Of a stretch of 64,000 nucleotides of DNA, positions 1-43,219 are shown one piece after another. This stretch comes from Candidatus Saccharimonadota bacterium (lineage in GTDB: Bacteria > Patescibacteriota > Saccharimonadia > Saccharimonadales > OFTM59): the NCBI GenBank assembly GCA_029260855.1, contig JAJDCK010000001.1, positions 1,705 through 65,704 on the forward strand. The letters run 5' to 3'. A model generated the notes under the pieces. That model saw only the letters and a list, made by a program, of their open reading frames with translations. It was not told the origin of the DNA and did no database searches. The position numbers and the translations under genes are program-made. Every line of letters starts with the position of its first letter. Position 1 is the stretch's first letter.

Positions 1-377
1 TCGTAGAAGAAAAAGATTTCGCTTTGGTGTGGCACTATCGAAATGTATCACCGGATCTAGCCTTTGTGCGCAAGGAAGAGCTAAAGATGGATCTTCAAGG
101 CCAACTTAGCGACAGCGAAATAGGTGTATTTGAAGGTAACAAGATTATTGAGATTAAACCAAAAAATATGCACAAAGGCGCGATTGTCGCTGAACTATTA
201 TCACAAGATAAGTGGGATTTCATAATGGCTATCGGAGACGATTATACCGACGAAGATATGTTCCGCGCCTTGCCAGAGCGGTCATATAGCATTCGTGTCG
301 GAGGAGGCGATACCGCGGCTCGGTATCAACTAGATAGTGTTGATGAGGTGATAAATTTGCTGGCAAATCTTAAGTAG
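1..377 (+). CDS. otsB: trehalose-phosphatase (HAD-IIB), C-terminal part; 5' end lies outside the window
   Basis: The frame is open from nt 3 (VEEKDFALVWHYRNV...). The HAD motif AIGDDYTDEDMF is typical of trehalose-6-phosphate phosphatases. Confidence 0.7.
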   Translation, partial: VEEKDFALVWHYRNVSPDLAFVRKEELKMDLQGQLSDSEIGVFEGNKIIEIKPKNMHKGAIVAELLSQDKWDFIMAIGDDYTDEDMFRALPERSYSIRVGGGDTAARYQLDSVDEVINLLANLK

Positions 378-4946: not shown

Positions 4947-7340
4947 TTATGCGCTTGTTCGCTTAGCAAACCCGAAGCCTGCTTTGTTCTTTGAAATACT
5001 GGTAGACTTATTAACCTTAACCGTGCTTTGTTCTGCCGTGTGCCGCGGCTTCATATGCAGGTAATATGTGGTCTTTAGGCCTTTTTCCCACGCCTTGGTA
5101 TAGATATCGACCATATCGTCTATTTCGCGTGTTTCTAGGTACATGTTTCGTGACATGGATTGGTCAATCCACTTTTGGGCTCGTGCAGCTACCTCTATAA
5201 AAGCATATGGCGATAACTGGAACGAGGTCTTGTACACATCCCGGACTTCCTGAGGTATAGCCTCTATCTCCTGAATATCACCTTGAGCACGCAAAATATC
5301 TTCGCGAACTTCTTCCCATATACCTAACTCTTTTAGGTCATTCACAAGGTTAGCGTTCACTTCTAGGAACTTGCCATTTAGAGTGGCTCTGCTGAAAATC
5401 TGTGAAAACTGCGGATCAATTCCTGGTGTTGTGCCAGCAACATGGGCAATATTGGCCGTTGGTGCTATGGCCATCAGCGTTGCGTTGCGCATGCCCTTCT
5501 TGACTTTTTTGCGCAGCTTAGCCCAGTCCATTCTTTGAGTACGGTTTACTTCAATTTTGACTTTTCGATCCTTAGCAGTTGTTTCAAGCGTATCAAACGG
5601 GACCACACCTTGACTCCAGCGTGAACCTTTGTAGTTCGGGTAGCTTCCACGCTCTTCTGCTAGGCTAGCGCTTTCATCAATCGCATGGTAGCTGACAAAC
5701 TCCGCAATGCGATCGCTAAGCTCATAGGCCTGCTCGCTGTCGTACGGGAAACCAAGTCGCTCAGTTACGTCCGTAAAACCCATCACGCCCAGGCCAACGG
5801 CTCTGTTCATTTTGTTGGAATGCATGGCTTCGGGAATTGGGGTGGTTGTTATGTCAATCAGGTTATCTAGCTGGCGAATAGCAGAACGAACGCTAGATTC
5901 TAGGCGCTTCCAGTCAAAATCTTTCTGTTCATCTAGTAGGTGAGCCGACAAGTTAAGGCTAGCCAGGTTACACACCGCAATATTGTTCTCATCTTGCGGT
6001 AAGCATATCTCAGTACAAAGATTAGACATGTGAATAGTACCCGTGTTGTTGTTGAGGGCGCGGTTGTTGGTGGTGTCCTTCCAGGTCAGCCACGGATGCG
6101 AGGTAGTTTGTAGACTCATCAGTATTGATCTGAACTGCTCGCGCGCCTTAATTCTCTTGAATACACGCATCTTTCCGGATTCGGCTAGCTTGACATATTC
6201 GTTGTAACGCTTAGAAAAGGCAGAGCCGTAAAGCTCGTTTAGATCACTGACTTCAGCTGGGTCAAACAAATACCAGTCAGCGTCATTTTTCACTCGTTTC
6301 ATAAACTCGTCCGAAATCCATACGGCAGTATTGGCCGTTCTGGCGCGACGATAGGGGTCGCCAGAGTTTTGTTTAAGGTCAAGATACTGTGGGAAGTCGA
6401 GGTGCCAGTTTTCTAAGTAGAAACAAAGCGCGCCTGCCTTTTTCCCTTTGCGGCTGACAGCTCGCAAAATCGAGTCAACGGTATGCATGTAGGGTATAGG
6501 GCCAGTAGACACCGTATTTGTGCTGCGTACTGGCGAACCCTCCGCGCGAAGCTTGGTCATACTAAGGCCTATACCGCCAGTACCCTTACTCATCCACATG
6601 ACGTCACGGTTGGCTTTTGCGATTGATTCAATATCGTCCTGGACCTCCATCAAGAAACAGTTAGCTAGTTGCGGGAAGTGCGTACCAGCGTTAACGTTAG
6701 TTGAGCCGCCAGGGATATAGTCCAAGCGAGACATGTGCTCATAAAAGTTCAGTGCTGCTTCTGTTGGGTTCTTTTCGTTGAAGCTCAACCCCATCGCAAC
6801 ACGCATACGCGAATACTGAGGCACCTCAATCGTCTCGCCGTCTAGTCTACGCAAAGAGTAGCGATTCCGGCTAGTAATAACCCCAAGGTACTTCATAAGA
6901 TTGTCTCTTGAAGGGTCAATAGCAAGCGCAAGCTTTTTAAGGTCAAAAAGTTTGTCGTTCATGCGCTTGTCAAGTAGCCCCTCACGGACGCCATCCTTGA
7001 TATATTGAATAAATTTGGTCCGGTGAAGTTCTACCAGTTCTTCGTCAGTGTTGAAGTCGCCCAAAACTTGCTTGTAAATAGTTTTGAGCAGCAAGCGTGC
7101 CGCTATCGTGTCATAGTCAGGATCATCTTTGACGTTCTGTAGCGCAGTGTTGATCGCCGCTTGGTCCAGCTGCGTAGTAGTAATACCGTCAAACAATGTC
7201 AGCGACAGCTCAGTCGCAATCTGAACCACCTTAGAAATTTGGTCTGGGAGACCCCTTGACGCGCGCTCCAGCGCACGATTGATTCTGTCGGCGTTGTACG
7301 GCTCTCTCTTACCGTCGACGTGCTGGACAGTGATATCCAT
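4947..7340 (-). CDS. nrdA: ribonucleotide reductase large subunit R1 (class I)
   Basis: N-terminal ATP-cone-like segment (VDGKREPYNADRINRALERA) and active-site SNLCTEI. 797 aa, with no Cys in the last ~40 residues. Confidence 0.92.
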   Translation of the reverse strand: MDITVQHVDGKREPYNADRINRALERASRGLPDQISKVVQIATELSLTLFDGITTTQLDQAAINTALQNVKDDPDYDTIAARLLLKTIYKQVLGDFNTDEELVELHRTKFIQYIKDGVREGLLDKRMNDKLFDLKKLALAIDPSRDNLMKYLGVITSRNRYSLRRLDGETIEVPQYSRMRVAMGLSFNEKNPTEAALNFYEHMSRLDYIPGGSTNVNAGTHFPQLANCFLMEVQDDIESIAKANRDVMWMSKGTGGIGLSMTKLRAEGSPVRSTNTVSTGPIPYMHTVDSILRAVSRKGKKAGALCFYLENWHLDFPQYLDLKQNSGDPYRRARTANTAVWISDEFMKRVKNDADWYLFDPAEVSDLNELYGSAFSKRYNEYVKLAESGKMRVFKRIKAREQFRSILMSLQTTSHPWLTWKDTTNNRALNNNTGTIHMSNLCTEICLPQDENNIAVCNLASLNLSAHLLDEQKDFDWKRLESSVRSAIRQLDNLIDITTTPIPEAMHSNKMNRAVGLGVMGFTDVTERLGFPYDSEQAYELSDRIAEFVSYHAIDESASLAEERGSYPNYKGSRWSQGVVPFDTLETTAKDRKVKIEVNRTQRMDWAKLRKKVKKGMRNATLMAIAPTANIAHVAGTTPGIDPQFSQIFSRATLNGKFLEVNANLVNDLKELGIWEEVREDILRAQGDIQEIEAIPQEVRDVYKTSFQLSPYAFIEVAARAQKWIDQSMSRNMYLETREIDDMVDIYTKAWEKGLKTTYYLHMKPRHTAEQSTVKVNKSTSISKNKAGFGFAKRTSA

Positions 7341-7589
7341 TGTACCCTCCTTATTTTTGTAAGTTTTAATTTTGCCTCAAGCTCGCCCGTTCAGGGTTAG
7401 CTAAAAAGTAAAAGCTCCCACTTTCACATCCAGCTTACACGTGCTGCCCAAAAACGTAAAGACCAAATTTTGGGGCAACTATACCGAACGCAATGGCGTC
7501 TGGCGTCGCAGTTACAGTTTAAAAACTACTGTTTTTAAACATTTTCAGGGGAAAACCTGAAATTCCGGACGCTGGGTGTAGTGCTTAGT

Positions 7590-29198: not shown

Positions 29199-29219
29199 GG
29201 CGTGGATAAGGACGCAGTC

Positions 29220-29227
29220 ATTATACA
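29220..29227 (-). promoter_or_regulatory. extended -10 (TGTATAAT) upstream of tRNA-Leu(UAA)
   Basis: On the minus strand, TGTATAAT ends ~21 nt before the tRNA 5' end. Confidence 0.35.
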
Positions 29228-29300
29228 GGACGGGCACAGGGGTCCCCAAGCCGAGAGGATTCGACTTGGGGTAAAGCGAGGCTGTGCACGGAAGCTGGAA

Positions 29301-29328
29301 GTAAAAAGCTTCCGGTTTTTACGGAAGC
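29301..29328 (-). terminator. intrinsic terminator after tRNA-Cys
   Basis: On the minus strand: GCTTCCG-TAAAAAC-CGGAAGC followed by TTTTTAC. Confidence 0.55.
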
Positions 29329-29346
29329 TGAAGCTGCACAATGAGC

Positions 29347-29992: not shown

Positions 29993-30256
29993 TTATTTTC
30001 GCTTAGTTTTTGTGGAAAGTCTGTCTAATAATGATGATTGGAGCAGGTTCCAGACAATTGAATTTACAAAAAAAGCTGCAATAGCAATTAGCGCTATAAG
30101 TACTATGTTGTGGCCCAACTCACCATTGAATAGACTGATAATTCCTGCGAGCATTACGACTATCACAGTCAACGCCAGATAGGCATGCTGCAGCTTTTGC
30201 CGTTCACTCTTTTGCGCATTCCAACTATTTAGCGAATCTTTTAGAACCTCAAACAT
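29993..30256 (-). CDS. small two-TM membrane protein
   Basis: GGAGAT RBS 4 nt before the ATG and two clear TM helices. Preferred over the antisense 29988..30182 ORF. Confidence 0.55.
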   Translation of the reverse strand: MFEVLKDSLNSWNAQKSERQKLQHAYLALTVIVVMLAGIISLFNGELGHNIVLIALIAIAAFFVNSIVWNLLQSSLLDRLSTKTKRK

Positions 30257-30502
30257 CCATATCTCCTATAATTAGATATATTATACTACCATTATATTTT
30301 TATGTCAATTTTATATTATTCCTATGTAGTTAGTCAGTTAAAAAAGTTATATATTGAAAAAAGTGCCCTATACGCGTCTCTTTTGGTTTCAGTTTGGTGC
30401 GGAGCTACAGAATTTACTTAAACTTTTTGGAGCGCTGGTTGACGGTAGTCTATCAAGCGCACCGCGCATTCCTGTTTCGCTCAAAAGCAGGGAGCTTGTT
30501 AT

Positions 30503-31459
30503 CTATTGAGCCTTACGCAAGCCCTCACGCCCCAGGCTGAGCCAATAATCAGTCTCTTCTGTGTCATTACCGTTTATATACTTCTCTTGGTGTGCGCCCA
30601 TAAATTCCATAGCTACGCCAGCAAGTGCGTATGCAGGTAGATACTTGCGCTCCTGGTCGGTCAGTGGGCAAAACTCACCATACTCATCTGCTACCAGCTC
30701 GCATTTCCGCTCTAGTGTCTCTGTACCGTTATCGTGAAGTAAGTTGGCAACAATTACCGCCAGCTCCTGTATGCGCGGGTAGTGATTGGCAACTGAAAAA
30801 TCTAGGATATATATCTTGCCGTCTTCGCCTTTAATAACATTCGCTTTAGTGAAGTCACCGTGTACAAAACAGTGTGGCAGGTCGTCTGTAGGGATAGCAT
30901 CATAGCCTGCAATCGCTTGCTCAACTAATGGTAAGTCTTCTGGCGCAATATACTGCTCTACCTTTTCAAGCATCGCGTGAATGTTTGGAATAGCCCAGCT
31001 ATCAAATAAATAGGGTGGTTCATAATCAATACTGTTTACCATAGCTGCTTGTTCCAGTACGTCTTTACGCTCTTCGTCTGATGGGGAGCGGTCTAGCTCC
31101 AAGAAACTCTTACCTTCAACAAATCGCATTAAAACGAGCGTAACGCCACTATCGCTATATGTCGTTTCGCCAGTATCAGTTGTTAATAGTTCTGGGTGAT
31201 GTACCCCAGCCTGTACGACCTTTTCCATTGTGGTGGCATAGCGAGTAATGTCTTCTGGTGTTCGTGTCTTAGCAAACATTTTGGCGACAAACTTTGCTTG
31301 GTCGGTTTCTATAATGACATTGCAATCTTCATAACCGACTTCAACGATACTACTCGCACTCAACTGACCAACGCCATAAGTTTCACAGACACGCTCAATG
31401 ACTGGCGTAAGGTCGCCTGTGTAATTTAGCCGGTCCGCTGGTGTTTGAAGTTCAGACAT
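30503..31459 (-). CDS. aminoglycoside/choline-kinase-fold phosphotransferase (APH family)
   Basis: Brenner motif HGDFTKAN and ILDFS. Start taken at MSELQT (ATGTCTGA overlaps the upstream stop). Confidence 0.75.
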   Translation of the reverse strand: MSELQTPADRLNYTGDLTPVIERVCETYGVGQLSASSIVEVGYEDCNVIIETDQAKFVAKMFAKTRTPEDITRYATTMEKVVQAGVHHPELLTTDTGETTYSDSGVTLVLMRFVEGKSFLELDRSPSDEERKDVLEQAAMVNSIDYEPPYLFDSWAIPNIHAMLEKVEQYIAPEDLPLVEQAIAGYDAIPTDDLPHCFVHGDFTKANVIKGEDGKIYILDFSVANHYPRIQELAVIVANLLHDNGTETLERKCELVADEYGEFCPLTDQERKYLPAYALAGVAMEFMGAHQEKYINGNDTEETDYWLSLGREGLRKAQ

Positions 31460-32285
31460 CAGCCAATAATTCCAAGTCTTGCGCGGATAACTCAATTGCA
31501 GTTGCCGCAATATTTTCGTCAATGTGCTGCTTATTTATAGCTTTAGGGATAGGCAATGTACCCTGTGTAAGCAACCACGCTAAAGCGACCTGAGCTGCTG
31601 TAGCATTGTGAGCCTTTGCAATATCTTGTATGACTTCACTATCTAGCACTTCCTGCCTCTTAACAGGTTGATAGGCAACTATATGGATATTATTTTCTCG
31701 GCAGTAATCCCAAAACTCTTGATTAACTTCATCTTTATAAAGCACATTGTAGTTCATTTGATTTGCCACAATCGGATGCTTTGCAATTTTGCGTGTTTGC
31801 TCCATATCGGCAACCGTGAAGTTACTAACTCCAAAATCGCGGACTATTCCTTCGTCAATCAATTCGTCTATTTGCGGAATAGCTTCCTGCCAGTTCACCT
31901 CATCCCAAGGTGCGTGAATGTACAGCATATCTAGATAGTCAGTACCCAGCTTTTTGAGCATCTGTTCAACCGTTGCACGGACTAAGCCATCGCCAACGCT
32001 TGTTTTCCATAGCTTATCAGCAATATATAAATCTTCACGCTTTAAGCCAGCGATTGCTTGACCGACAACCTCATCGGTATGAAATGCCCCGTACAGCTCA
32101 GCACAATCAATATGGTTCTGACCTTTGGAAATTGAATAGCGTATAGCCTCAGTCTCGGCTGCTTCATTATCGTAATTAGGCTCAGCTCCTTTGTACTTAG
32201 CACCTGGGTCAGCAGTGAATGTGCCGCCAATGTTCCAAGTACCGATGCCGATTGGAAAAAGTGTTTTGCCTGATTTTGTTTTCAT
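31452..32285 (-). CDS. aldo/keto reductase
   Basis: AKR pattern (IGIGTW, DCAELYG, HAPW, GVSNF). Start is uncertain: M at 32285, 32294 or 32297. Confidence 0.8.
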   Translation of the reverse strand: MKTKSGKTLFPIGIGTWNIGGTFTADPGAKYKGAEPNYDNEAAETEAIRYSISKGQNHIDCAELYGAFHTDEVVGQAIAGLKREDLYIADKLWKTSVGDGLVRATVEQMLKKLGTDYLDMLYIHAPWDEVNWQEAIPQIDELIDEGIVRDFGVSNFTVADMEQTRKIAKHPIVANQMNYNVLYKDEVNQEFWDYCRENNIHIVAYQPVKRQEVLDSEVIQDIAKAHNATAAQVALAWLLTQGTLPIPKAINKQHIDENIAATAIELSAQDLELLADV

Positions 32286-32310
32286 GTATCTCATCATAAC
32301 AAAATATGCC

Positions 32311-34941
32311 TTAAGTTTTTGCTGCTTTAGCTCGCTGCTTAATATCGGCAACCCAGTCCTTTAGGATTTGTAAGTGGTCTTTCAGATTGTCTGGAGTAGG
32401 TGTCTCTGTGCTACCAGCTTCGGCAGCTGGGTCATGCATATACTTTGCGCAGGTATGCATATTATCTGCGATGAGCTGCTTATCGGCATCGTCAATGAAA
32501 ATATCGTTAATGTTTCCCGGTTTCACATCTCTGCGATAGCGGATTACAATCCCGTTCAATAAAACTTCCTCTATCGCTCTTTCCCAGGTTCTCCTTAAAT
32601 CCTTATAAAAACTTTCTGTCTCGGTCTTGTAGTCTTCCTCATTATTTTCAAACTTGGCTTTAATGGGGTTTACTCGCTTCTCAAGAAAGTCAATTCGCTG
32701 TCCAGTCTTCATAGTGTCAAAGGGTAGGCTTTCACGCACGACACCAGGGCTTGAAACCTTTTCAATTGACCTAGCTGTATACCGTCCGCCAAGGTCGTTC
32801 ATAGCTCTCTCTAGCTCACTTGCGAATAGAACATTATGTGTAAATACAATCACCTGCCGAGTAAGCGCCTCTTGTGCTATGCGTTTTGCTATTCGCTCAA
32901 CATTGTGATGGTCCAATGAAGTTACAGGGTCATCAAAAACAATCGCTGATGTTGATGGGGTTATTGATAATTCTGCAAAAAATCCAGCAAGCGCAACACC
33001 TCTTTGTTCGCCCTCACTCATAATCTTCTCAATGTTGTCGCCCTTAAGGTCACCTGACTTGCCCGAGAGAATAATGGCACTAGAGGGAACGCCTTTTGTA
33101 GTTCTTCCTTTTACTAACTTCGCAGTAATTTTACCTAGGAATATTGCGTCAAGCTCGTCATTAAAAGTTTTGGCAAGTTTATCAATGATTAAACGCTCAC
33201 TTATATCACCAATTTTAGTACTTACTGCAAAAGTTTTGCTTGAATTTATTGCGTCCTGTAATACCTTCTTATCCTGATGAATATTAATATTTTCAAGGAT
33301 TTGTTTTTCGTAAGTGCTTAATGCCTTTTTTGATTTTAGATTCTTCAGCTTATCTAGGTCGGTCTGTAGCTGTCGCCTGAATTCATCGTCATCAAGAGGG
33401 GTCTTTATCTCTTCCCCTAATGCATTTACACATTCACTAAACCTAGTTATTTCTGCCTCAAGTTTTTTCAAGTCAGCGTACTTATCTATCTCATTAGAGC
33501 CATTGAAGATAGCCAGGTAATCTTGGTGCGCGTCTCTCGCCGTCTTAATGCTAGCCGAAAGTTTGGCGATGTCCTTATAGTCATCTCCGCTAAAATTTAC
33601 CAGCAGATTATCGTATGTGTCATCTAGGAGGTTGGCTCTGATAAACCCATCTCTAAGGGATTTGAAGACTGTATCTGCATTAGTAGCCAAGGACTGGCTC
33701 TTGTCATTAACAAAGCTAACAAAGTCACTGAACTTATCTGTGCTAGCCGATGAGATTGGCTGCTGACAAAGTACACACTTTGCCTGCTCGCCCGTGTGCG
33801 GAAAGGTATGCTCAGGATACGCAGACTTAGACGAGAATTCTTGTGCTGCTTCCCATAGGTTTTTCCATAAATCATTGCCCGTCCCGGTAATAAAGTTTTC
33901 ATTTTCAAACTTCTTTTTGCCAGCTTCGTCTGCCAACTTGCGCTTACTAACTGCGTCATCACGGGCGGTTATTATCTTATCTACATTTTCTGGGTCAAGC
34001 GCCTCCTGTAGCGTGTTGAGTTGAGTAAGTAAACCATTAAGCCTGGTGTATAGCTTGGTCCTCTCATCTCTAATTTTTTGTGGAGACTTCGTCTGCCTTA
34101 AGACAGTATCTTTTTCTAAAGCTATGATTTCTTGCTGTTCATCTAAAGTAAGGACCTTTTGAGCCTTAAAATCGTTTAGTGCCGTTTTGCCTGACAAGCC
34201 GCCGATTAATTCATGTGCCTTTGTACCGCTAAACTCCACAAAACTGGTTTCAAGGTTGTTAAGTGTGTCCGTCTTTGCTTGCAGGTCATCTTTCAGCTTT
34301 TGCGCAATAGCTTCAATAGCAATAGAGAGGCTGTCTAGAATATCCATACCAGCGGGCATGAATACCAAATCGTTCTCAGAGATTAAATAGTTGTGTCCGC
34401 TTTTACTATCAAAAACATGGACTGATTTTAACTGGGGGTCAGCTTCGCTACTGTTATCTAGCTGAAAGCTATGACTGCTTCCGTCAACTTCATAAAGGAT
34501 ATTGGCAATGCACTCACGCTCATGCTCACTATGCACATTGCCGCGTAGTTGCTCGCTATGACGACAATTACAACTATTTTTAAGAATTCTAGTGTATCCA
34601 GATTTACCAGAGGCATTATCCCCGTAAATCATGTTCAGCCCCACCTTTTCTAGAGGGAGCGGTGAACCATCGGTAATTGCATTTATATTTTGCGTTGCTT
34701 TAACTTCTGAAATTCTAACCCCGCCAGCAGAAGTTGCTCCGGTGTACTCATACTCCTCTAGCGGACTGCCTACTTTTTCGGCATATGCTTTTGGGTCAGT
34801 AGCTGCTTCAATTGCTTGAGCTGCGTAGAACCTGTATCGTTTATCATCAAGTTCGCCGCCAGAAAGAAGTTCAGCAACCAAAACTTGCTGCCACACGGGC
34901 TGACTTAAAGCCCACTTAACTATCTCGTCAATAATCTCCAT
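32311..34941 (-). CDS. RloC/PrrC-like ABC-type ATPase with a coiled-coil/CxxC zinc-hook insert (AAA_13-type); candidate anticodon nuclease
   Basis: Walker A GDNASGKS (107-114). About 420 aa of heptad-rich sequence with CVLC (389-392) near its midpoint. Signature SEGEQ (642), Walker B AIVFDD (666-671) and THN (701-703). The C-terminal ~170 aa contains LRRTWERAIEE and CAKYMHD. Confidence 0.6.
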   Translation of the reverse strand: MEIIDEIVKWALSQPVWQQVLVAELLSGGELDDKRYRFYAAQAIEAATDPKAYAEKVGSPLEEYEYTGATSAGGVRISEVKATQNINAITDGSPLPLEKVGLNMIYGDNASGKSGYTRILKNSCNCRHSEQLRGNVHSEHERECIANILYEVDGSSHSFQLDNSSEADPQLKSVHVFDSKSGHNYLISENDLVFMPAGMDILDSLSIAIEAIAQKLKDDLQAKTDTLNNLETSFVEFSGTKAHELIGGLSGKTALNDFKAQKVLTLDEQQEIIALEKDTVLRQTKSPQKIRDERTKLYTRLNGLLTQLNTLQEALDPENVDKIITARDDAVSKRKLADEAGKKKFENENFITGTGNDLWKNLWEAAQEFSSKSAYPEHTFPHTGEQAKCVLCQQPISSASTDKFSDFVSFVNDKSQSLATNADTVFKSLRDGFIRANLLDDTYDNLLVNFSGDDYKDIAKLSASIKTARDAHQDYLAIFNGSNEIDKYADLKKLEAEITRFSECVNALGEEIKTPLDDDEFRRQLQTDLDKLKNLKSKKALSTYEKQILENINIHQDKKVLQDAINSSKTFAVSTKIGDISERLIIDKLAKTFNDELDAIFLGKITAKLVKGRTTKGVPSSAIILSGKSGDLKGDNIEKIMSEGEQRGVALAGFFAELSITPSTSAIVFDDPVTSLDHHNVERIAKRIAQEALTRQVIVFTHNVLFASELERAMNDLGGRYTARSIEKVSSPGVVRESLPFDTMKTGQRIDFLEKRVNPIKAKFENNEEDYKTETESFYKDLRRTWERAIEEVLLNGIVIRYRRDVKPGNINDIFIDDADKQLIADNMHTCAKYMHDPAAEAGSTETPTPDNLKDHLQILKDWVADIKQRAKAAKT

Positions 34942-35093
34942 TAGAATAAGTTTACATCTGTAAACAGAGTTTGCATATCATTCGTTTTTATTACCAACTA
35001 TTTTAGTACTTTAATACTACTAAATGGGCGGGGGTGGTCTCCCTTCACCCCCGTTAATGACACTCCGCTGTATAAATGCCCAATTTTTGGGGG

Positions 35094-35372
35094 TAGAATG
35101 ACCAAGCGTTTTTTTGGGAGGAAAAAGGAAGTGCCGAATTTATGGGACTGACTTTGAAAAACACATTTTTTGATACAATAGGGTTACATTAACAATCAAC
35201 CGAATTCATTGTGTAGCCAACGCGGAGACTGGACCGCTTCAAAAAACTTCAGGGGCGTTTACAGCGAATTAACTGTGTAGGAATTACGAGGACGGCTCGG
35301 CATAAAACGGACTTACTAGCGGACTAACTGAGGTTTTTACTTCAAGGGGTCACACGGGATGTCCGTTTTTTT
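35094..35372 (+). ncRNA. candidate structured RNA or leader upstream of the recombinase gene
   Basis: TAGAAT -10-like element at 35094-35099. There are no ORFs longer than 26 codons on either strand. A 9-bp long-range stem AAAACGGAC/GTCCGTTTT (35304-35312 / 35361-35369) is followed by a T7 run. Confidence 0.3.
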
Positions 35373-35538
35373 ATTACAAAACAACCTAGAGCTGAGTATG
35401 GTGTCGTTGCTCAGCATCCTTTCAAGCTACGCTGAAACAGCAAACCAAGAGAAACCATATCTAGTAAAAGATGGCGTTAAAATCATTTTATAGACATACG
35501 CCTAAAGCTGCTTAAACTCTGTAAAGGATTATATACTT

Positions 35539-37239
35539 ATGGGTATGGCAGAACTTACCAGTACCCAGAAACTACTAGAGCTACTTCAAGCCGGTCTACC
35601 AAAAGCCCCAGGGGATGTGGATACAGGTACTATTAACTACGCCCTGTACGCTAGGAAATCTACTACCAGCGAAGATAGACAAGCCTCATCTATTGAAGAC
35701 CAGGTAACAGAGTGTATGGAAAAGGTTGTTGTACCAAACGACCTAAATATTGTTAAGGTCTATGAAGAGAGCTTCTCGGCAAAGATTGCTGATACGCGCG
35801 ATGAGTTTAAAGCGCTCATTAACGAGATAGAGAACGGTCATATTGATGGTCTCATTGCTTGGCATCCTGACCGTCTAGCGCGCAATATGAAAGAGGCGGG
35901 GGCGATTATTGACCTTGTAGACAGAGGACTAATTAAAGACCTCCGCTTTCCTACCTTCACCTTTGAAAACACTCCCGCCGGTAAAATGCTGCTCGGCATT
36001 ACATTTGTTATGGCTAAGCAGTATTCGGAACACCTTGCGGAAAGCGTTGACCGTGGGAACAAGCGAGCCATAGAGGACGGCGAGTTTATTGGTAAATTCA
36101 AGCACGGCTACACGGTTGATATTAACCGTACATTCCAGCCCGACCCTCGCAACTTCACGAAGGTTAAACATATGTTTACTATGGCTGTTGAGGGCAAGTC
36201 TCAAAAGCAAATCCGCGAGTGGATAAACGAGCAAGGCTACACGGTCCAAAAGCGCCCAGGTGGCGAGTATGAGCCTCACAAATGGGATAAGGACGATGTC
36301 TCAAAGCTCATCCGAGACCCGCACTACGCAGGTGTCCATAAATGGGGCAAGAACTTCACTGACCTTATGGAGGCTTACGATTTTGAGCCAATGATTTCAG
36401 TAGATGACTTCTTAAAGATAAACAAAGTTGATAGTCTCAACTCTGCAAAGATACTTGCCATTAGTAGACCACGAGGCGGCAACATTCGGGCAGACCTACT
36501 GAGGGGCAAGGTTTATTGTGGCGCGTGTAATAAGACACTCACCTCAATGTTGATTGATAAAAGGGATAAAGAAACCAAGGAAATTATTCAGTCACGCTAC
36601 TACTACAAATGCGAGACTGAGGGTTGCGCCGTAGAGGGTAGTTCTGCCCGTGCTGGATTAGTTGTCAGCGCCGCACAGCAGTTCTTTCAGGATTATTTAT
36701 TCATTACCAAGGGCAACTACGCCCACTTCGTTAAAGAGGCTGAAAAAGAGGCAAAGCGTAAGTCCGCAGAGTTTGACAGCATTATTGCTCGGTCAAAAAT
36801 CACTATCGCCAACAAGGAAAAATCATACGAGCGCACTAAAGATCTCATCCTCAAAAACCCTGACCTCAAAGAGCATTATGACCTAGATAAGTACAGCAAA
36901 GAGATTGAGAAAATAAGGAAGGACTTCGTTAAAGCTACGAAACAGCGCGACAACATCAAGAGCGCCATACCAACATTTGAAGAATACCTTAAACTTTTAG
37001 AAACCACCCCTGTTATCCTGGGCAAGATACGGGATATGAAGGTAATGGATGTGCTGCTAAGGATTTTCTTCTCTAATTTCACCATAATTCCAGGCGAAGA
37101 CGGCTTCCGTAAGGGGTCAACAGTGACCATAAAACTAAACGAACCCTGGGAAGGGTTCGTTGTTGCCAATGATTTCGTTCGTGGTGCGGGTAAAGGGACT
37201 CTAACCCTTGGCCTCGTCCTTGGCAAGGACGCGCTCTAA
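35539..37239 (+). CDS. large serine recombinase (integrase)
   Basis: N-terminal resolvase domain (YALYARKSTTSEDRQASSIEDQ), recombinase domain, Cys-rich zinc ribbon (CGACNK...YYYKCETEGC) and a coiled-coil C-terminus. The last 58 nt are antisense to tRNA-Gly. Confidence 0.88.
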   Translation: MGMAELTSTQKLLELLQAGLPKAPGDVDTGTINYALYARKSTTSEDRQASSIEDQVTECMEKVVVPNDLNIVKVYEESFSAKIADTRDEFKALINEIENGHIDGLIAWHPDRLARNMKEAGAIIDLVDRGLIKDLRFPTFTFENTPAGKMLLGITFVMAKQYSEHLAESVDRGNKRAIEDGEFIGKFKHGYTVDINRTFQPDPRNFTKVKHMFTMAVEGKSQKQIREWINEQGYTVQKRPGGEYEPHKWDKDDVSKLIRDPHYAGVHKWGKNFTDLMEAYDFEPMISVDDFLKINKVDSLNSAKILAISRPRGGNIRADLLRGKVYCGACNKTLTSMLIDKRDKETKEIIQSRYYYKCETEGCAVEGSSARAGLVVSAAQQFFQDYLFITKGNYAHFVKEAEKEAKRKSAEFDSIIARSKITIANKEKSYERTKDLILKNPDLKEHYDLDKYSKEIEKIRKDFVKATKQRDNIKSAIPTFEEYLKLLETTPVILGKIRDMKVMDVLLRIFFSNFTIIPGEDGFRKGSTVTIKLNEPWEGFVVANDFVRGAGKGTLTLGLVLGKDAL

Positions 37240-37258
37240 ACAACTGAGCTACACCCGC
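37182..37258 (-). tRNA. tRNA-Gly(GCC)
   Basis: Manual fold: acceptor GCGGGTG/TACCCGC, D-arm GCTC-AGTTGTTTA-GAGC, anticodon arm CGTCC-TTGCCAA-GGACG, T-arm AAGGG-TTAGAGT-CCCTT, encoded CCA. Confidence 0.85.
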
Positions 37259-37312
37259 ATGTTTGAACTGACATATTCTGTCAGAGTTCTGTGAGTTTTT
37301 AAAGAGCACGTT

Positions 37313-37330
37313 CTTGGCCTGGCAAGGACG
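37313..37330 (-). pseudogene. tRNA-Gly anticodon/variable-region remnant with a 7-nt deletion
   Basis: cttggcc|tggcaaggacg equals 37207-37213 plus 37221-37231 of the intact gene, lacking tcgtcct. Confidence 0.5.
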
Positions 37331-37358
37331 GTCACGCTAGCGCAACCACATTCTGCGG

Positions 37359-37507
37359 CCCCGACACTGACTTACTTGAAACAAGTTTCAAATCAGTCAG
37401 ATGTCCTTGCAATGAGCCACCAGCTCATCTCACCCGAAGCCTCCTTACTTTAAACAAGTTTAAAATCTGAAAGGCTTCCTTGCGAACTGCCACCGGGCAG
37501 TTCTCAC
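37359..37507 (-). repeat. two tandem ~75-nt structured modules (A 37434-37507, B 37359-37433)
   Basis: Shared frame GTGAGA-hairpin1-TYGCAAGGA-hairpin2(CTTG loop)-TCGG(GG), with covarying stems. See findings. Confidence 0.75.
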
Positions 37508-37533
37508 TCTAAACAACTGAGCTACACCCGCAT
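37507..37533 (-). pseudogene. truncated 5' copy of tRNA-Gly (positions 1-25 plus 2 upstream nt)
   Basis: 27-nt perfect direct repeat of 37234-37260. Confidence 0.8.
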
Positions 37534-37716
37534 CTTTGCGAAGCAAAGTTTGGCGCCCCCTCCCAAACAGCGGACTAAAGTCCTCTTTCGCTCAGTCATG
37601 CTCAGAGTAAACTTTTGCGCGCGACTTCGCTTCACCGACTGGTCGCTACGCGACCTTCCAGTTCGAGCCTGTGCGGCCATATAAATATTACAGTCTGATG
37701 ACTGAAATATTTATAA

Positions 37717-37792
37717 TGGTGGCTCCTCCCAGACTCGAACTGGGGACACAAGGCTCTTCAAGCCTCTGCTCTACCAACTGAGCTAAAGAGCC
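37717..37792 (-). tRNA. tRNA-Phe(GAA)
   Basis: Acceptor GGCTCTT/AGGAGCC, D-arm GCTC-AGTTGGTA-GAGC, anticodon loop TTGAAGA, encoded CCA. Confidence 0.88.
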
Positions 37793-37816
37793 ACGTCGGA
37801 ACCGATGGCCAGCTTA

Positions 37817-37838
37817 CACAAAAGCCATTGTTGGCTTT
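37817..37838 (-). terminator. intrinsic terminator downstream of the SPFH-MazG operon
   Basis: On the minus strand: AAAGCCA-ACAA-TGGCTTT followed by TTGTGT. Confidence 0.45.
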
Positions 37839-37945
37839 CGTTCCATCTTCTGGTCGATTCCTCCTCACAATTTTCCATACAGTCGCCTAATGGCTCCATG
37901 GTTTGAAAAATTGGCTAGGACAAGGGTTATTCTACTTCAAAGAGG

Positions 37946-38284
37946 CTATTTCTTCAAGAAGTGTTTCTTTTTGAAGCGGCCCTTGTCCCGACTTTCTAGT
38001 TTCGCTATTGAGTTTTCTAGCGCTGCATCCAGATCTATGCCTTCACTGTTAGCAACACAAATAATGCTGTATATAATATCGGCCAGCTCGTCAGCCAGGT
38101 CTTCGTGCTCTTCGTCTGCCTTTTTGGGTTTGTCGCCATATTTGTGATTAAGGATCCGCGAGACCTCACCAACCTCTTCTATGATTCGGGCCAGCTGACT
38201 TAACTGATGCCAATAAGGTTTTTCGTAGGCCTGCAATTCATCGTCAACTTGTTTCTGGTAACCTTTTAAGTTCATATGGCTCAT
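37946..38284 (-). CDS. MazG-like nucleotide pyrophosphohydrolase
   Basis: EEVGEVSRIL ... DELADIIYSIICVAN, characteristic of small MazG-family proteins. Confidence 0.75.
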   Translation of the reverse strand: MSHMNLKGYQKQVDDELQAYEKPYWHQLSQLARIIEEVGEVSRILNHKYGDKPKKADEEHEDLADELADIIYSIICVANSEGIDLDAALENSIAKLESRDKGRFKKKHFLKK

Positions 38285-38285
38285 T

Positions 38286-39029
38286 TTATTGCTTGTTTTG
38301 GCGTAGAACGTCTATGAGCTCCATCGGGAACGCAAAGAATGTCTTCTGGGAGGGTTCCGCAGAAATACGCTCTAAGGTGTTCAACGTACGGAGGTTAATT
38401 GCACCTGGCGTACCACTAAGCAACTTTGCTGCATCCGCCAGCGTCTGGGCCACCATTCGTTCAGCGTCGGCGTTAATAACGTTTGCACGTCGCTCACGCT
38501 CAGCCTCAGCCTGCTTTGCCATAGCCCGTTTCATATCCTGTGGCAGTTCAATGTTTTGAAGTTTGACGTTTTCAACATCTATACCCCATTTGTCGGTCTC
38601 AGCGTCTACAATTTTTTTAATCTGCATGCTGATTTCTTCTCGCTTTCCTAGAAGTTCGTCTAGCTCAACATTACCCACTACGTCGCGAAGCGCAGCTTGT
38701 GCGAACTGTGAAGTAGCATAGGTGTAGTTAGTCGTCTCAAGAACCGCCCTAGCTGGGTCAATTACCCTGAAGTAAACAACCGCGTCTACGCCAATAGTGA
38801 CGTTGTCTTTGGTAATAACTTCTTGCTTAGGCACATCAACCGGCGTGGAGCGTACATCAACTTTTCTTATGATCTGTATAACGGGGATAATGATATTAAA
38901 GCCGGGGCTACGTATACCCGTAAACTTACCCAGAGTCAGGACAATGCCGCGCTCGTATTGATTAATAATACGGATCCCGTTGATCAGTATTATGGTTATA
39001 AAAATTAGTGCGGTAGAGATTATAAACAT
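38286..39029 (-). CDS. SPFH/band-7 (stomatin/HflC-like) membrane protein
   Basis: N-terminal TM helix, then an SPFH core (YERGIVLTLGKF ... ALRDVVG) and a coiled C-terminus. Confidence 0.88.
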   Translation of the reverse strand: MFIISTALIFITIILINGIRIINQYERGIVLTLGKFTGIRSPGFNIIIPVIQIIRKVDVRSTPVDVPKQEVITKDNVTIGVDAVVYFRVIDPARAVLETTNYTYATSQFAQAALRDVVGNVELDELLGKREEISMQIKKIVDAETDKWGIDVENVKLQNIELPQDMKRAMAKQAEAERERRANVINADAERMVAQTLADAAKLLSGTPGAINLRTLNTLERISAEPSQKTFFAFPMELIDVLRQNKQ

Positions 39030-39057
39030 AGCACCCTAAGACCTCCGTTATGTTCTT

Positions 39058-39086
39058 ATTGTAGGTTTATTCTGTTAAGTTGCCAA
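39058..39086 (-). promoter_or_regulatory. putative promoter of the SPFH-MazG operon
   Basis: On the minus strand: TTGGCA, 17 nt, TACAAT, about 28 nt upstream of the start codon. Confidence 0.45.
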
Positions 39087-39196
39087 AAGATTTTATTTTT
39101 ATCCATGCCATGTCTTCTTCTACCACTACTCAGCACGCCACGTTCTTTAGTTTTTCATATCAATACCTTGTGGGCTGCCGCCTATAAGTATTGGTA

Positions 39197-39220
39197 ATAA
39201 AAAAGCCTGCTCCTTGCAGG
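39197..39220 (-). terminator. intrinsic terminator after the tRNA-Val 3'-end duplicate
   Basis: On the minus strand: CCTGC-AAGGA-GCAGG followed by CTTTTTTATT. Confidence 0.6.
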
Positions 39221-39228
39221 TTATTTAT

Positions 39229-39247
39229 TTGGTGGGTGATGAGGGAC
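39229..39247 (-). repeat. 19-nt duplicate of the tRNA-Val 3' end (T-stem 3' strand, acceptor, CCA)
   Basis: ttggtgggtgatgagggac is identical to 39411-39429. Confidence 0.8.
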
Positions 39248-39378
39248 AGCAGACTCCGTCCTTTATCCGCTGCGGCATGCTCGGAGCAAACTCCTGCGCG
39301 TGTCCTCACTACAACGACCCCGACCTTTGCCAGCTAAAGCTGTCAAGTCGGAGAACCGCGTCTGATTACATAGCCAAT

Positions 39379-39402
39379 ATAAAAACCCCGTGTAATACGG
39401 GG
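39379..39402 (-). terminator. intrinsic terminator directly after tRNA-Val
   Basis: On the minus strand: CCCCG-TATTACA-CGGGG followed by TTTTTAT. Confidence 0.6.
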
Positions 39403-39411
39403 CCTTTATAT

Positions 39412-39488
39412 TGGTGGGTGATGAGGGACTCGAACCCCCGACCCTCTCGGTGTAAACGAGATGCTCTAGCCAACTGAGCTAATCACCC
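39412..39488 (-). tRNA. tRNA-Val(UAC)
   Basis: Acceptor GGGTGAT/ATCACCC, anticodon arm TCTCG-TTTACAC-CGAGA, T-loop TTCGAGT, encoded CCA. Confidence 0.9.
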
Positions 39489-39516
39489 TTGATTGTCAAT
39501 ATAATAGCACATCTTT

Positions 39517-39603
39517 TGGTGCGGATGAGAGGACTTGAACCTCCATGAGCCGAAGCCCACTAGCCCCTGAAGCTAGCGCGTCTACCAATTCCGCCACATC
39601 CGC
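39517..39603 (-). tRNA. tRNA-Leu(CAG)
   Basis: Acceptor GCGGATG/CATCCGC, anticodon arm CTAGC-TTCAGGG-GCTAG, 15-nt variable arm, encoded CCA. Confidence 0.9.
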
Positions 39604-39659
39604 ATACTGTAATCAATGGTTCAAGATGTAATTATAAAGGACTTGGTCACGTCCCGCGA

Positions 39660-39732
39660 CCCCGAAACTTCGCTATTGGCAACAAGTTGCCATCGGAAGA
39701 TTTCCTTGCGAAGTGCCACCGGCACTTCTCAC
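39660..39732 (-). repeat. structured module C (third copy of the 37359-37507 family)
   Basis: GTGAGA-AGTGC CGGTG GCACT-TCGCAAGGA-...TGGCAA CTTG TTGCCA...-TCGGGG. Confidence 0.75.
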
Positions 39733-39795
39733 CTCCATGAGCCGAAGCCCACTAGCCCCTGAAGCTAGCGCGTCTACCAATTCCGCCACATCCGC
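39733..39795 (-). pseudogene. truncated 5' copy of tRNA-Leu(CAG) (positions 1-63/65)
   Basis: Part of a 66-nt perfect direct repeat (39731-39796 equals 39539-39604). It lacks the T-loop and the 3' acceptor strand. Confidence 0.85.
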
Positions 39796-39851
39796 ATTTT
39801 AGAGCAGCTGAGGATTGAACTTTACAATCTTACGAGGTATAAGCACAAAAC

Positions 39852-40139
39852 TCAAGCGTGGGGTGGAACTTTAGTATGCTTCTTCGAAAGTCGTCTACGC
39901 TCGTGAATGGACGTAATACCACGCAGGGCTACGATGACCCACACAACATCAAGCACGACGCTGATGTGTGCACTGCGGTTTAGGTTGTAGATCATCAACA
40001 ACCCAGCACCGAGCAAGTTATCTAGCTCATACCAGAACGATGTGTTTGTCCACCGTCCTATACTGGTCCTATAAAAACCAAACAATATCAGAGCTGCACC
40101 AGTAGTACCTATAAATGTAAGCAAAGCATCGGACATCAA
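39852..40139 (-). CDS. small three-TM membrane protein
   Basis: 95 aa with three hydrophobic helices and a basic C-terminus. Confidence 0.5.
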   Translation of the reverse strand: MMSDALLTFIGTTGAALILFGFYRTSIGRWTNTSFWYELDNLLGAGLLMIYNLNRSAHISVVLDVVWVIVALRGITSIHERRRLSKKHTKVPPHA

Positions 40140-42457: not shown

Positions 42458-42544
42458 TGGTGCGCGAGAGAGGACTTGAACCTCCACGTCCTTGCGGACA
42501 CTAGAACCTCAATCTAGCCTGTCTACCAATTCCAGCACTCGCGC
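42458..42544 (-). tRNA. tRNA-Leu(GAG)
   Basis: Acceptor GCGCGAG/CTCGCGC, anticodon arm CTAGA-TTGAGGT-TCTAG, long variable arm, encoded CCA. Confidence 0.9.
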
Positions 42545-43219
42545 CAACAATGCCTTACTAGCATACGGATCTGTTCTGATGAAATCAATAAATTTAATCC
42601 GTTTTCTGCTAAGTGATAATGCATTTATATCCGCATACATGAATGCAAAAAGTTTTTGAGAATCCGTTTTAGCATAAGTTAGAGTTAAACCGCCTCTATT
42701 TGGCTTAATCTTACCCGGGCTAGTATTTACAAGCTCTGTATTCATGGTTTGAATCCATTGTAAAAATTTTGAGCTCGCATTTATGAACCCCGTGTAATAC
42801 ATAAAACTATTTGACCAACGCTTATCCCAATATCCATAGACCGTGCCGTCACCATCAAAATAACCTCTTAAAAAACCAGCGTAGTATTCGCTAGGTAGGA
42901 CAATCTTTCCCATCGTCTTGCTCTTGGCAGTTGTAAGGCCTGACAGTAGCAAAAAATCATAAAATGCTACATTACTAAACTGGAGGTGATAAGCCATGTT
43001 TCCGTAAGGGCTTTGCTTCGTCGAAACTTTGACATTCATACACATTATCTGTTGCACGATATCTATTATTTCTTTGTCTTTTGATGTCACGTTAATATGC
43101 CTACCGTTATTAATCAGGCAACCGTCTGCCGCAATAAGCCCCACGATATAGGCGAGTTCGGAGTTCCATGTATAAAACTTTTTATATTTATAACGGCTCA
43201 TGTATAAATAGTATACCAT
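42509..43219 (-). CDS. free-standing LAGLIDADG homing endonuclease
   Basis: Two LAGLIDADG motifs (LAYIVGLIAADGCL and FLRGYFDGDGTV). The last 12 codons (ARVLELVDRLD*) are encoded by nt 1-36 of tRNA-Leu(GAG). Confidence 0.8.
   Translation of the reverse strand: MVYYLYMSRYKYKKFYTWNSELAYIVGLIAADGCLINNGRHINVTSKDKEIIDIVQQIMCMNVKVSTKQSPYGNMAYHLQFSNVAFYDFLLLSGLTTAKSKTMGKIVLPSEYYAGFLRGYFDGDGTVYGYWDKRWSNSFMYYTGFINASSKFLQWIQTMNTELVNTSPGKIKPNRGGLTLTYAKTDSQKLFAFMYADINALSLSRKRIKFIDFIRTDPYASKALLARVLELVDRLD

Follow-up and report, generated by a model that had tools for sequence, protein, structure and literature searches.

A Three-Hairpin Structured Insert in Partial tRNA Gene Copies of Candidatus Saccharibacteria

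Introduction

Why is an intact bacterial tRNA gene preceded by a broken copy of itself, and what are the short structured sequences that lie in the break? This question is raised by the tRNA-Gly locus in a stretch of 64,000 nucleotides (nt) from a Candidatus Saccharimonadota bacterium (assembly GCA_029260855.1, contig JAJDCK010000001.1, positions 1,705 to 65,704; the whole stretch is referred to as the window), in which two related sequences, modules A and B, follow a truncated 5' end of the tRNA. The genomes of Saccharibacteria (TM7), which are ultra-small epibionts, measure close to 1 Mb, and a conserved, covarying fold of ~90 nt that is tied to many tRNA genes in genomes of this size calls for an explanation. 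Based on its structure, distribution, junctions and orthologous loci, we consider the chances about even that the module is a lineage-specific (Ca. Saccharibacteria), strand-specific, structured insertion element of tRNA loops that is, or formerly was, mobile.

The tRNA-Gly Locus

The window is a segment of a bacterial chromosome, which codes for LeuS, LigA, UvrA, UvrC, Obg, and NrdA and contains eight tRNA genes, all on the minus strand; the loci are described in minus-strand reading order throughout. A complete module folds into three hairpins (P1, P2, and P3). In the following list of the parts of the locus, R1 denotes a covariance model of the module family and L070 an orthologous locus in a Saccharibacteria metagenome-assembled genome, both of which are described below.

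37507..37533, minus strand: AT plus tRNA-Gly 1-25, a 5' duplicate of the intact gene (identical to 37234-37260)
37434..37507, minus strand: module A of the GUGAGA three-hairpin family, with P1 and P2 present and its own P3 displaced downstream by module B (R1 44.7 bits, E=1.6e-8, P3 outside the match; aligned to the single module of L070)
37344..37433, minus strand: module B, complete, within the P2/P3 joiner of module A, TTCGG^GG (R1 71.8 bits, E=9.4e-15; clean gap in L070)
37330..37347, minus strand: displaced P3 of module A, GGTTGCG-CTAG-CGTGACC (sequence reading; aligns to P3 of the L070 module)
37320..37330, minus strand: continuation of the interrupted copy, CGTCCTTGCCA, corresponding to tRNA-Gly 28-38, with positions 26-27 absent (exact 11-nt match; junction rule)
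37294..37319, minus strand: degenerate antisense tRNA-Gly, from ~35 back to ~14, without a module (local alignment to the tRNA-Gly reverse complement, 12 of 2000 shuffles as high; kept in L070)
37265..37289, minus strand: hairpin GAACTCTGACA-GAATA-TGTCAGTTC, just 5' of the intact tRNA-Gly (sequence reading; no counterpart in L070)
37182..37258, minus strand: intact tRNA-Gly(GCC) with CCA encoded (ARAGORN; Rfam tRNA 67.8 bits)

Module A occupies tRNA-Gly after G25, in place of positions 26-27, and G37507 doubles as its column 1 and as the end of the tRNA-Gly 5' fragment; module B sits in module A, not in the tRNA. The displaced P3 of module A has GGTT in common with the end of the P3 of module B, and its final C is also position 28 of tRNA-Gly. 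The sequence GGCCAAG comes directly after CGTCCTTGCCA.

Several of these parts had already been recognized in an earlier interpretation of the locus made from its letters alone (the sequence-only reading), including the 27-nt perfect 5' duplicate (37533-37507, equal to 37260-37234), the hairpin before the intact gene (37289-37265), and the intact gene itself (37258-37182), on which ARAGORN and Rfam agree. The two modules are real and homologous, as had been claimed, both being matched by R1, which was trained without them. The proposed insertion of both modules at position 25/26 applies to module A, which follows G25, but not to module B, which is nested in module A and corresponds to a gap in L070. 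On the other hand, a supposed spacer of ~28 nt had to be given up, being P3 of module B and then the displaced P3 of module A (37360-37330), and a supposed tRNA remnant lacking 7 nt is better described as tRNA-Gly 28-38 followed by the inverted copy listed above.

Structure of the Module

The module is 88-92 nt long and has a strand-specific fold of three hairpins. It starts with G-UGAGA and continues into P1, which has 10 pairs, bulged A4 and G26, and a GGU loop, the 5' end being paired through U2-A28 and G3-C27. The two bases AG join P1 to P2 (~17 pairs, CUUG-type loop), and GG joins P2 to P3 (7 pairs, GAA-type loop, and a conserved G.U pair). The three copies in the window can be aligned with each other, and their stems covary. 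A consensus alignment was built from 60 non-identical copies, mostly from other genomes, in which the window copy at tRNA-Leu was included and modules A and B were excluded. Standard pairs were found in 97.6% of the cells, with compensatory (two-sided) changes at 21 of the 34 pairs. None of 500 column shuffles equaled any observed structure measure, and pairing fell to 26-47% when the 3' partners were slid by 1-3 columns. Moreover, the pair formed by columns 81 and 90 is G.U in 55 of the 60 sequences; because it would be C.A on the opposite strand, the tRNA-sense strand is the folding strand.

By using R1, the covariance model made from the 60-copy alignment, exactly three copies were detected in the window (39732-39645, 104.7 bits; 37433-37344, 71.8 bits; 37507-37434, 44.7 bits), the highest score, that of the Leu copy, being circular because this copy was in the training set. 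The pattern TGAGA..GCAAGGA also has three occurrences in the window vs. 0.11 expected by chance.

Distribution of the Module Family

A scan with a pattern from the conserved 5' half of the module, covering one genome per bacterial or archaeal species, generated 70 loci, ~65 of which were labeled Candidatus Saccharibacteria, Saccharimonadia, or Saccharimonadales. Two were obvious chance matches (L075 and L099), leaving 68 real loci, in which R1 identified 81 copies, with up to three per 8 kb; together with the three of the window, 84 copies could be analyzed. Thus, the further tRNA-module junctions that the sequence-only reading had anticipated in related genomes do occur. A few loci labeled Burkholderiaceae, Mucilaginibacter, or Parcubacteria hold bona fide modules, and these contigs may be mis-binned. 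No module was found in viral contigs (with a tighter pattern), phage records, or plasmid records. A loose pattern, GTGAGAN{4,7}GGTGGN{4,8}GCAAGGA, gave 32 matches in viral contigs, which were dismissed, all of them being coding and without hairpin context and most belonging to one phage gene.

In the window, only tRNAs reached the Rfam gathering score, and a permissive Rfam scan (37000-40000, E up to 10) left the modules unmatched and returned neither Intron_gpI nor group II introns. No account of the module was found in Rfam 15 or by a full-text literature search, which does find tRNA group I introns of Patescibacteria, although its absence elsewhere is unproven. When close relatives were looked for by exact protein match, a single contig of 1.7 kb came back.

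One Saccharibacteria contig (L038) carries both modules and a group I intron (7202-7409, minus strand; Rfam Intron_gpI, 74.5 bits), which means that group I introns and modules coexist. The same contig has two modules placed tail to tail and 8 nt apart (16-103, plus strand; 111-198, minus strand), both with CGAGTCCTA, an inverted duplication with a module in both arms. In addition, a module in L077 (4221-4308, plus strand) lies 57 nt past the 3' end of a 5S rRNA gene on the opposite strand, and its flanks were matched to no tRNA.

Insertion Sites and Junctions

Where tRNA flanks are recognizable, they are always in sense orientation to the module. The sites were tallied by eye from the printed flanks of the 84 copies:

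T-loop: ~60 of 84 copies
D-loop: 7 of 84 copies
Position 25/26: 4 of 84 copies
Position 37/38: 3 of 84 copies
P2/P3 joiner of another module: 4 of 84 copies
Other, no assignment: 3 of 84 copies

Junctions were read where an adjoining intact gene permits exact comparison. The G of module column 1 is the target's own G, and the final base of the module (a pyrimidine paired with G77) likewise belongs to the target. From the stretch that separates these two bases in the target, exactly two nt have been lost at 20 of 27 informative junctions. In T-loops, T54 T55 or G53 T54 are lost; in D-loops, the two nt that follow G18, the first G of the loop; in tRNA-Gly, positions 26-27; and in the anticodon loop, two nt. 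Junction microhomology, which had been suspected before, takes the form of the module's first G held in common with a target G at the readable junctions. No direct repeat or target-site duplication was seen at the module junctions.

Because two target nt are replaced, excision at the module borders cannot restore the tRNA. When the module was replaced by 0-3 nt, a tRNA was predicted in only ~6 of the 84 host copies, more than 90% of the hosts being partial, truncated, or degenerate; plain deletion with 455 boundary combinations per copy gave almost no predicted tRNAs. In the window, no tRNA was predicted from the partial Gly or Leu copies once the modules were removed or replaced by 0-3 nt. 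An intact tRNA on the same strand, with an exact match to at least one flank, lies within ~500 nt of ~52 of the 84 copies. Two hosts are otherwise complete genes, namely a tRNA-Glu(CTC) with a module in its D-loop (L085, 8-170, minus strand) and a tRNA-Gly(GCC) with a module in its T-loop (L082, 2700-2860, minus strand), and neither has an intact copy in the 8-kb-scale DNA of its locus.

Orthologous Locus, Nesting, and Relationships among Copies

Alignment with a related genome, which the sequence-only reading had suggested, showed the same Gly architecture with one module. L070 has the same gene order as the window, and the whole Phe-Gly interval is alignable, with 81% column identity. Its parts are, in order, tRNA-Phe, an antisense Phe T-arm, module C (a second type of insert, described below), Gly 1-25, one module, CGTCCTTGCCAGGCCAAGG, and tRNA-Gly; the tRNA-Gly 28-38 segment and the inverted-copy sequence are present there too. 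Where the window has module B, L070 shows a clean gap, with ..TTCGG on one side and the P3 of module A on the other. Since L070 has a single module at this place, module B is a later insertion nested in module A. The same A-then-B nesting was found in L051, L063, and L095, so that nested pairs occur in four genomes.

The sole tRNA difference between the window and L070 is at position 7, which is G7 in the window and A7 in L070, in fragment and gene alike. The 5' fragment thus follows the tRNA of its own genome; it is homogenized or selected and evolves in concert with the gene rather than decaying. The sequence-only reading had proposed that an older tRNA-Gly copy was interrupted and decayed and was followed by a replacement. 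An interrupted, non-functional partial copy does lie 5' of the intact gene, but this scenario is too simple in view of the stereotyped layout, the orthology with L070, and the tracking of the gene by the fragment.

Mean module identity is 0.725 within one assembly vs. 0.734 between assemblies. The nearest relative of a copy is often found at a non-homologous site in another species; for example, the copy in L040 (tRNA-Pro, 37/38) is 0.93 identical to that in L078 (tRNA-Glu, D-loop), and the window copy in the Leu T-loop is 0.96 identical to one in L094.

Partial Copies and Inverted Segments

The tRNA-Leu(CAG) locus of the window has the same plan as the Gly locus (5' duplicate, one module, decayed T-loop continuation, and intact gene), and the observation that the same module occupies different positions in two tRNAs (at 25/26 of Gly, within the T-loop of Leu) was correct. 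In addition, mirror-image units were found 3' of tRNA-Phe and tRNA-Val:

39731..39797, minus strand: AT plus tRNA-Leu(CAG) 1-65, a perfect 5' duplicate (identical to 39539-39605)
39645..39732, minus strand: complete module in the T-loop of the partial tRNA-Leu, between G53 T54 and C56, with T55 absent (structure and family alignment; R1 104.7 bits, but a training-set copy)
39606..39644, minus strand: decayed continuation of the partial Leu copy (AAGTCCTtT..) and a short antisense T-arm piece, CTTGAACC (alignment, 33 of 2000 shuffles as high)
39517..39603, minus strand: intact tRNA-Leu(CAG) (ARAGORN; Rfam)
37534..37716, minus strand: mirror-image unit 3' of tRNA-Phe (sequence reading, alignment; kept in L070)
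Parts of the Phe unit in order, minus strand: hairpin 37704-37691; antisense Phe T-arm 37671-37658; module C ~37636-37568; diverged Phe 3'-end fragment 37567-37551; hairpin 37550-37534
39230..39411, minus strand: mirror-image unit 3' of tRNA-Val (sequence reading, alignment)
Parts of the Val unit in order, minus strand: terminator; sense GGTCGGGG; module C ~39317-39248; exact 18-nt tRNA-Val 3' end (39247-39230); terminator

Two types of unit can be distinguished. In the upstream type (Gly and Leu), tRNA positions 1 to p are followed by the module, ~10 nt more of the tRNA, an antisense-like segment around the site, a spacer, and the intact tRNA. In the downstream type (Phe and Val), the intact tRNA is followed by a terminator hairpin, antisense tRNA from 76 back to ~44, a short loop, sense 44-53, the module, sense 56-76 with CCA, and a second terminator; the antisense part begins with TGG(T) right after the terminator stem. 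For the antisense segment of the Phe unit, 6 of 2000 shuffles score as high. By inspection, the antisense segment crosses the insertion site without a module in both types, L038 being an exception; predicted folds therefore show the module leaving a helix of tRNA-derived sequence. In a fold-based test, a junction-spanning helix with upstream antisense was found in 29 of 81 copies vs. 9% of flank-shuffled controls. This test replaced an earlier one, in which 13 of 84 copies were significant but the flank windows overlapped the antisense itself. The order sense, inverted, sense is common across dozens of species, including its mirror-image form 3' of the gene, and this layout, with its turn-around at a hairpin, points to fold-back or template-switch synthesis.

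The 68 loci and the window contain 94 tRNA genes, 55 of which are accompanied, no more than 450 nt away, by a fragment (sense or antisense) that measures at least 12 nt. An R1 module lies within 450 nt of 51 of these 55 genes, and the other four have different inserts in the same layout, namely a relative of module C (L036), an array of ~90-nt inserts after tRNA-Met (L085), and short hairpins (L053 and L055). No partial tRNA duplicate without an insert was seen in the loci and the window, the loci having been picked for having modules. As to the extent of the duplicated segments, the perfect duplicates in the Gly and Leu loci take in the AT directly 5' of the tRNA (37532-37533, 37259-37260, 39796-39797, and 39604-39605), and the upstream duplicate in L053 reaches at least 8 nt (TGGTGTCT) past the 5' end of tRNA-Arg.

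Other Inserts in the Same Architecture

Module C is a second insert type, which is located in the T-loop of partial 3' copies of tRNA-Phe and tRNA-Val (in the window) and of tRNA-Ser(GCT). Its motifs are GGTGA-hairpin-CGCAARAG, AAGTTTRCT, AGCATG, and GGAC..GTCC GCTG. It was also found 5' of the Gly fragment in L070, and a relative is present in L036 (3640-3760). Module C has no Rfam match and is missed by R1 (only E=4.8 at 39356-39316), and because R1 does not detect it, it was handled as a separate family; a simple regular expression for it returned two copies only.

A further unit follows tRNA-Met in L085 (4777-5040, plus strand), in which a terminator, an antisense T-arm, a different insert of ~90 nt, and an exact 23-nt tRNA 3' end succeed each other; the terminator and the antisense part recur identically, giving a tandem array. 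In the window, the spacer between tRNA-Cys and tRNA-Leu(TAA) (29200-29346, minus strand) contains the hairpin CCCCAAG-TCGAATCCTCTCGG-CTTGGGG, whose loop includes the T-loop-like TCGAATCC and which may be a remnant of another tRNA-derived unit.

Neighboring Genes

Clustering of the open reading frames (ORFs) over the 68 loci revealed no recurring partner protein family. The sole recurrent neighbor is a gene for a large serine recombinase, the ORF of which extends into tRNA 3' ends or module units (window, L043, and L094). In the window, this ORF (35539-37239, plus strand; 566 aa with Resolvase, Recombinase, and Zn-ribbon domains) stops within the opposite-strand tRNA-Gly, overlapping its 3' end by 58 nt, and similar recombinase ORFs run into tRNA-Gln (L043) and into a module unit (L094). 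The recombinase cluster is partly an artefact, because ORFs read through the module antisense and BLAST groups them by the conserved module sequence; such opposite-strand ORFs were observed in L094 (3936-5861, minus strand) and, as short ORFs, in L050, L084, L090, and L103. Beside the recombinase of the window are genes for an AAA_13/SMC-like ATPase (32311-34941), an APH-family phosphotransferase, and an aldo-keto reductase, in low-GC DNA (GC content of 0.42-0.43 over ~30000-36000). The recombinase region looks like a genomic island integrated at the 3' end of tRNA-Gly, which appears to be a matter separate from the modules.

Elsewhere in the window, a free-standing LAGLIDADG_3 homing-endonuclease-like ORF (42509-43219, minus strand) ends 36 nt inside the 5' end of tRNA-Leu(GAG) (42458-42544). 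It was considered as a further fragment-flanked module and ruled out, with no tRNA fragments or modules flanking it.

Proposed Origin and Alternative Explanations

How might such units arise? In the explanation that we favor, the element would enter the sense strand of a tRNA at sites that the cloverleaf leaves single-stranded (T-loop 53-56, D-loop at ~G18, 25/26, and 37/38) and could also enter the matching P2/P3 joiner of another module. Insertion would take place after a G, usually in place of two nt, and would leave the carrier copy dead as a tRNA, so that the survivors would be modules in redundant partial tRNA copies adjoining an intact gene. The partial copies may have come from fold-back (template-switch) DNA synthesis, with the module-free inverted segment starting at a terminator or an upstream hairpin. 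That the targets are single-stranded in the cloverleaf suggests recognition at the level of RNA or of single-stranded DNA, two possibilities that the sequence cannot separate. The Gly locus would represent an old, vertically inherited case, in which module B later entered module A.

Several observations weigh against this explanation. No transposase, reverse transcriptase, endonuclease, or other steady partner was found near the modules among the window ORFs examined, and no fresh tRNA insertion was found together with its empty site, module B being nested in a module. The training copies were gathered with a pattern forcing GTGAGA, GGTGGC, and TYGCAAGGA, so that the invariance of these columns is partly due to ascertainment. 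Invariant single-stranded nt in old orthologous copies and the concerted evolution of fragment and gene fit a host-selected RNA function equally well as or better than a selfish element. In the fold-based test, the downstream-antisense form, which corresponds to the upstream-type layout as in Gly, was not enriched (6 of 81 copies vs. 11% of controls), and the upstream-type inverted copy consequently rests on inspection and individual alignments. Moreover, this explanation does not account for the two-nt replacement or for the module-free inverted copy, and the otherwise complete L085 and L082 copies may be young insertions or intron-like candidates.

The alternative that survives best, although we regard it as rather unlikely, is that the modules are a family of host-functional small RNAs, i.e., a non-coding RNA (for example, a protein- or ligand-binding fold) derived from tRNA operon transcripts, whose mobility would be secondary or ancient; this is compatible with mobility. 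The tRNA-derived sense and antisense flanks would then form a helix that sets the ends of the RNA, stabilizes it, or couples it to the maturation of the neighboring tRNA. Such a role is suggested by joiner and loop nt that are invariant in ~60 species while the stems compensate, by the co-orientation of the module with a tRNA gene at most ~150 nt away, by orthologous retention together with the concerted evolution just mentioned, by downstream units that end in a tRNA 3' end with CCA and then their own terminator, and by predicted folds that place the module at a multi-helix junction closed by a tRNA-derived helix. However, in the downstream type the stretch from the preceding terminator to the unit shows no space that could take a promoter, the same architecture also houses unrelated inserts (module C, module D, and short hairpins), and nested insertions break the P3 of module A. 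In addition, the antisense arm pairs with CCA and extends the terminator palindrome, which looks like a DNA-level duplication, and the flanks of old copies lose complementarity, as in the Phe unit of the window.

Somewhat more doubtful is a bolder version of mobility, in which the module would represent a new class of mobile RNA, ribozyme-like or protein-assisted and of ~90 nt, that inserts itself at the level of RNA into exposed loops of folded tRNAs (after G18, G26, G37, or G53) and is fixed via a DNA copy recombining with the tRNA gene, the module-free antisense segment and the intact gene being the footprints of this process. As an equally unprecedented alternative, the modules could be a Saccharibacteria-specific, tRNA-scaffolded family of functional RNAs.

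It is very improbable that the module is a true intervening sequence, i.e., a new small tRNA intron removed by itself or by a host enzyme, with interrupted copies that work now or did so recently. Positions 37/38, T-loop, D-loop, and 25/26 are indeed those of non-canonical tRNA introns, the sense-only orientation and the RNA-like fold would be expected of an intron, and a few hosts are complete save for the module (L085 tRNA-Glu and L082 tRNA-Gly). However, truncation or degeneration affects more than 90% of the host copies, the same tRNA is present next door in intact form where the flanks match a nearby gene (the ~52 of 84 given above), and two target nt are gone (e.g., T54 T55), so that excision at the borders would leave a 5-nt T-loop. 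There is also no match to a group I or group II model and no bulge-helix-bulge, and the module ends lie in separate hairpins. With virtual splicing yielding ~6 tRNAs from 84 copies, the intron reading is rejected as a general state.

Slighter still are the prospects of explaining the partial tRNA copies as attachment-site (att) duplications of genomic islands and the modules as conserved island ends. The serine recombinase ORF at 35539-37239 (plus strand), which ends in the 3' end of the intact tRNA-Gly, and its counterparts in L043 and L094 would suit such an origin, as would downstream units made of an intact tRNA and then a repeated tRNA 3' end. However, the repeats are only 60-250 nt apart with the module alone between them and no island there, the recombinase island is on the other side of tRNA-Gly, and recombinase genes are near only a few of the 68 loci. 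Furthermore, the 5' fragments are broken at 17, 25, 38, and 53, unlike 3'-end att sites, the module is inside the repeated tRNA segment and not beside it, and serine recombinases swap a 2-bp core and make no duplications of 25-67 nt.

Plain tandem duplication with pseudogene decay, the modules being ordinary local repeats, would account for a partial copy beside an intact one and for the degenerate 3' part, but it is most improbable given a covarying family across dozens of species and tRNA types, stereotyped junctions, inverted segments, perfect 5' but imperfect 3' parts, and an orthologous locus. A serine-recombinase mini-circle, an IS91/Helitron-like rolling circle at GTTC, IS200/IS605-type hairpin ends, a retroviral-type primer-binding site, and an RNase III-excised intervening sequence were also considered and dropped, none of them explaining the junctions or the architecture.

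Implications

If the module is mobile, it would insert specifically in tRNA loops and leave an unusual footprint (replacement of two nt, a target copy that is inverted and free of the module, and an intact gene alongside), which no known transposition, integration, or splicing scheme covers in full. If it functions as an RNA, it would represent a new class of RNAs that is linked to tRNA operons in a major uncultivated lineage. In practical terms, the units yield tRNA fragments and pseudo-tRNAs that mislead annotation, as well as spurious ORF extensions and protein families, and R1 can be used to flag contigs of Saccharibacteria within metagenome bins.

Comparison with Known Systems

The module element is apparently undescribed so far. 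Among the defining features of known systems that were tested, all fail save the multi-copy dispersal of miniature transposable elements that carry inverted repeats (MITEs) and the order of segments in inversion duplications.

Group I introns of Patescibacteria tRNAs belong to the same phylum-level group and are likewise structured RNA insertions in tRNA genes; they are at least 200 nt long and self-splicing, the sole gene copy carries them in its anticodon loop (mostly 35/36), and the Rfam group I model detects them (PMC13011429). The module differs in being ~90 nt long, having no Rfam family, and occurring mostly in the T-loops of redundant partial copies, and the paper is silent on it. With 88-92 nt and no Intron_gpI match, the module falls outside group I, and the Intron_gpI model works in these data, as seen in L038. 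It also falls outside group II, as neither an Rfam match nor, among the scanned ORFs of the window, a reverse transcriptase domain was found.

Rickettsia palindromic elements and bacterial MITEs are small non-autonomous repeats that invade genes. The module resembles them in being ~100 nt long, multi-copy (three copies in the window and 81 in 68 loci), lineage-specific, non-coding, present in a reduced genome, and able to sit in RNA genes. However, MITEs have terminal inverted repeats and target-site duplications and insert in both orientations, whereas the module is in sense to the tRNA wherever the flanks are recognizable and has a covarying, RNA-type fold with G.U pairs. In the 60-copy alignment, its 5' end (GUGAGA and P1) and its 3' end (P3) are unrelated, and it has no target-site duplication.

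In the model of the Roth laboratory, tandem inversion duplications are said to arise where short palindromes allow snap-back or template switching. The units described here have in common with them the order sense, inverted, sense and the one junction centered on a hairpin. On the other hand, all copies in a plain tandem inversion duplication have equal content, whereas here just one of the sense copies contains the module, at ~10 nt from the inner turn-around, and the whole structure measures only 100-300 nt.

The Mauriceville retroplasmid of Neurospora integrates at a mitochondrial tRNA gene via a hybrid tRNA-plasmid cDNA and homologous recombination. There too, a tRNA-element chimera is formed, with the element between partial and complete tRNA copies; the retroplasmid is a plasmid of 3-4 kb with a reverse transcriptase, whereas the module has ~90 nt and no reverse transcriptase among the window ORFs checked.

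Finally, archaeal transposed non-canonical tRNA introns and split tRNAs are said to have been described in Thermoproteales and Nanoarchaeum by Fujishima et al. in 2010 and by Randau and Soll in 2008. The archaeal introns form, together with their exons, a bulge-helix-bulge (a 4-bp helix between two bulges of 3 nt each) that is cut by the splicing endonuclease, and they reside in complete genes, whereas the module belongs to a bacterial lineage, costs its target two nt, and has more than 90% partial hosts, usually with an intact gene beside them; because its 5' end in P1 and its 3' end in P3 do not pair together, no bulge-helix-bulge is possible. The resemblance is nevertheless considerable, with related short sequences at the D-loop, 25/26, 37/38, and T-loop of various tRNAs in one lineage, a sense-only orientation, a symbiont with a reduced genome, and tRNA pieces with complementary sequences. 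If the module is mobile, it would also bear on the origin of non-canonical tRNA introns and split tRNAs.

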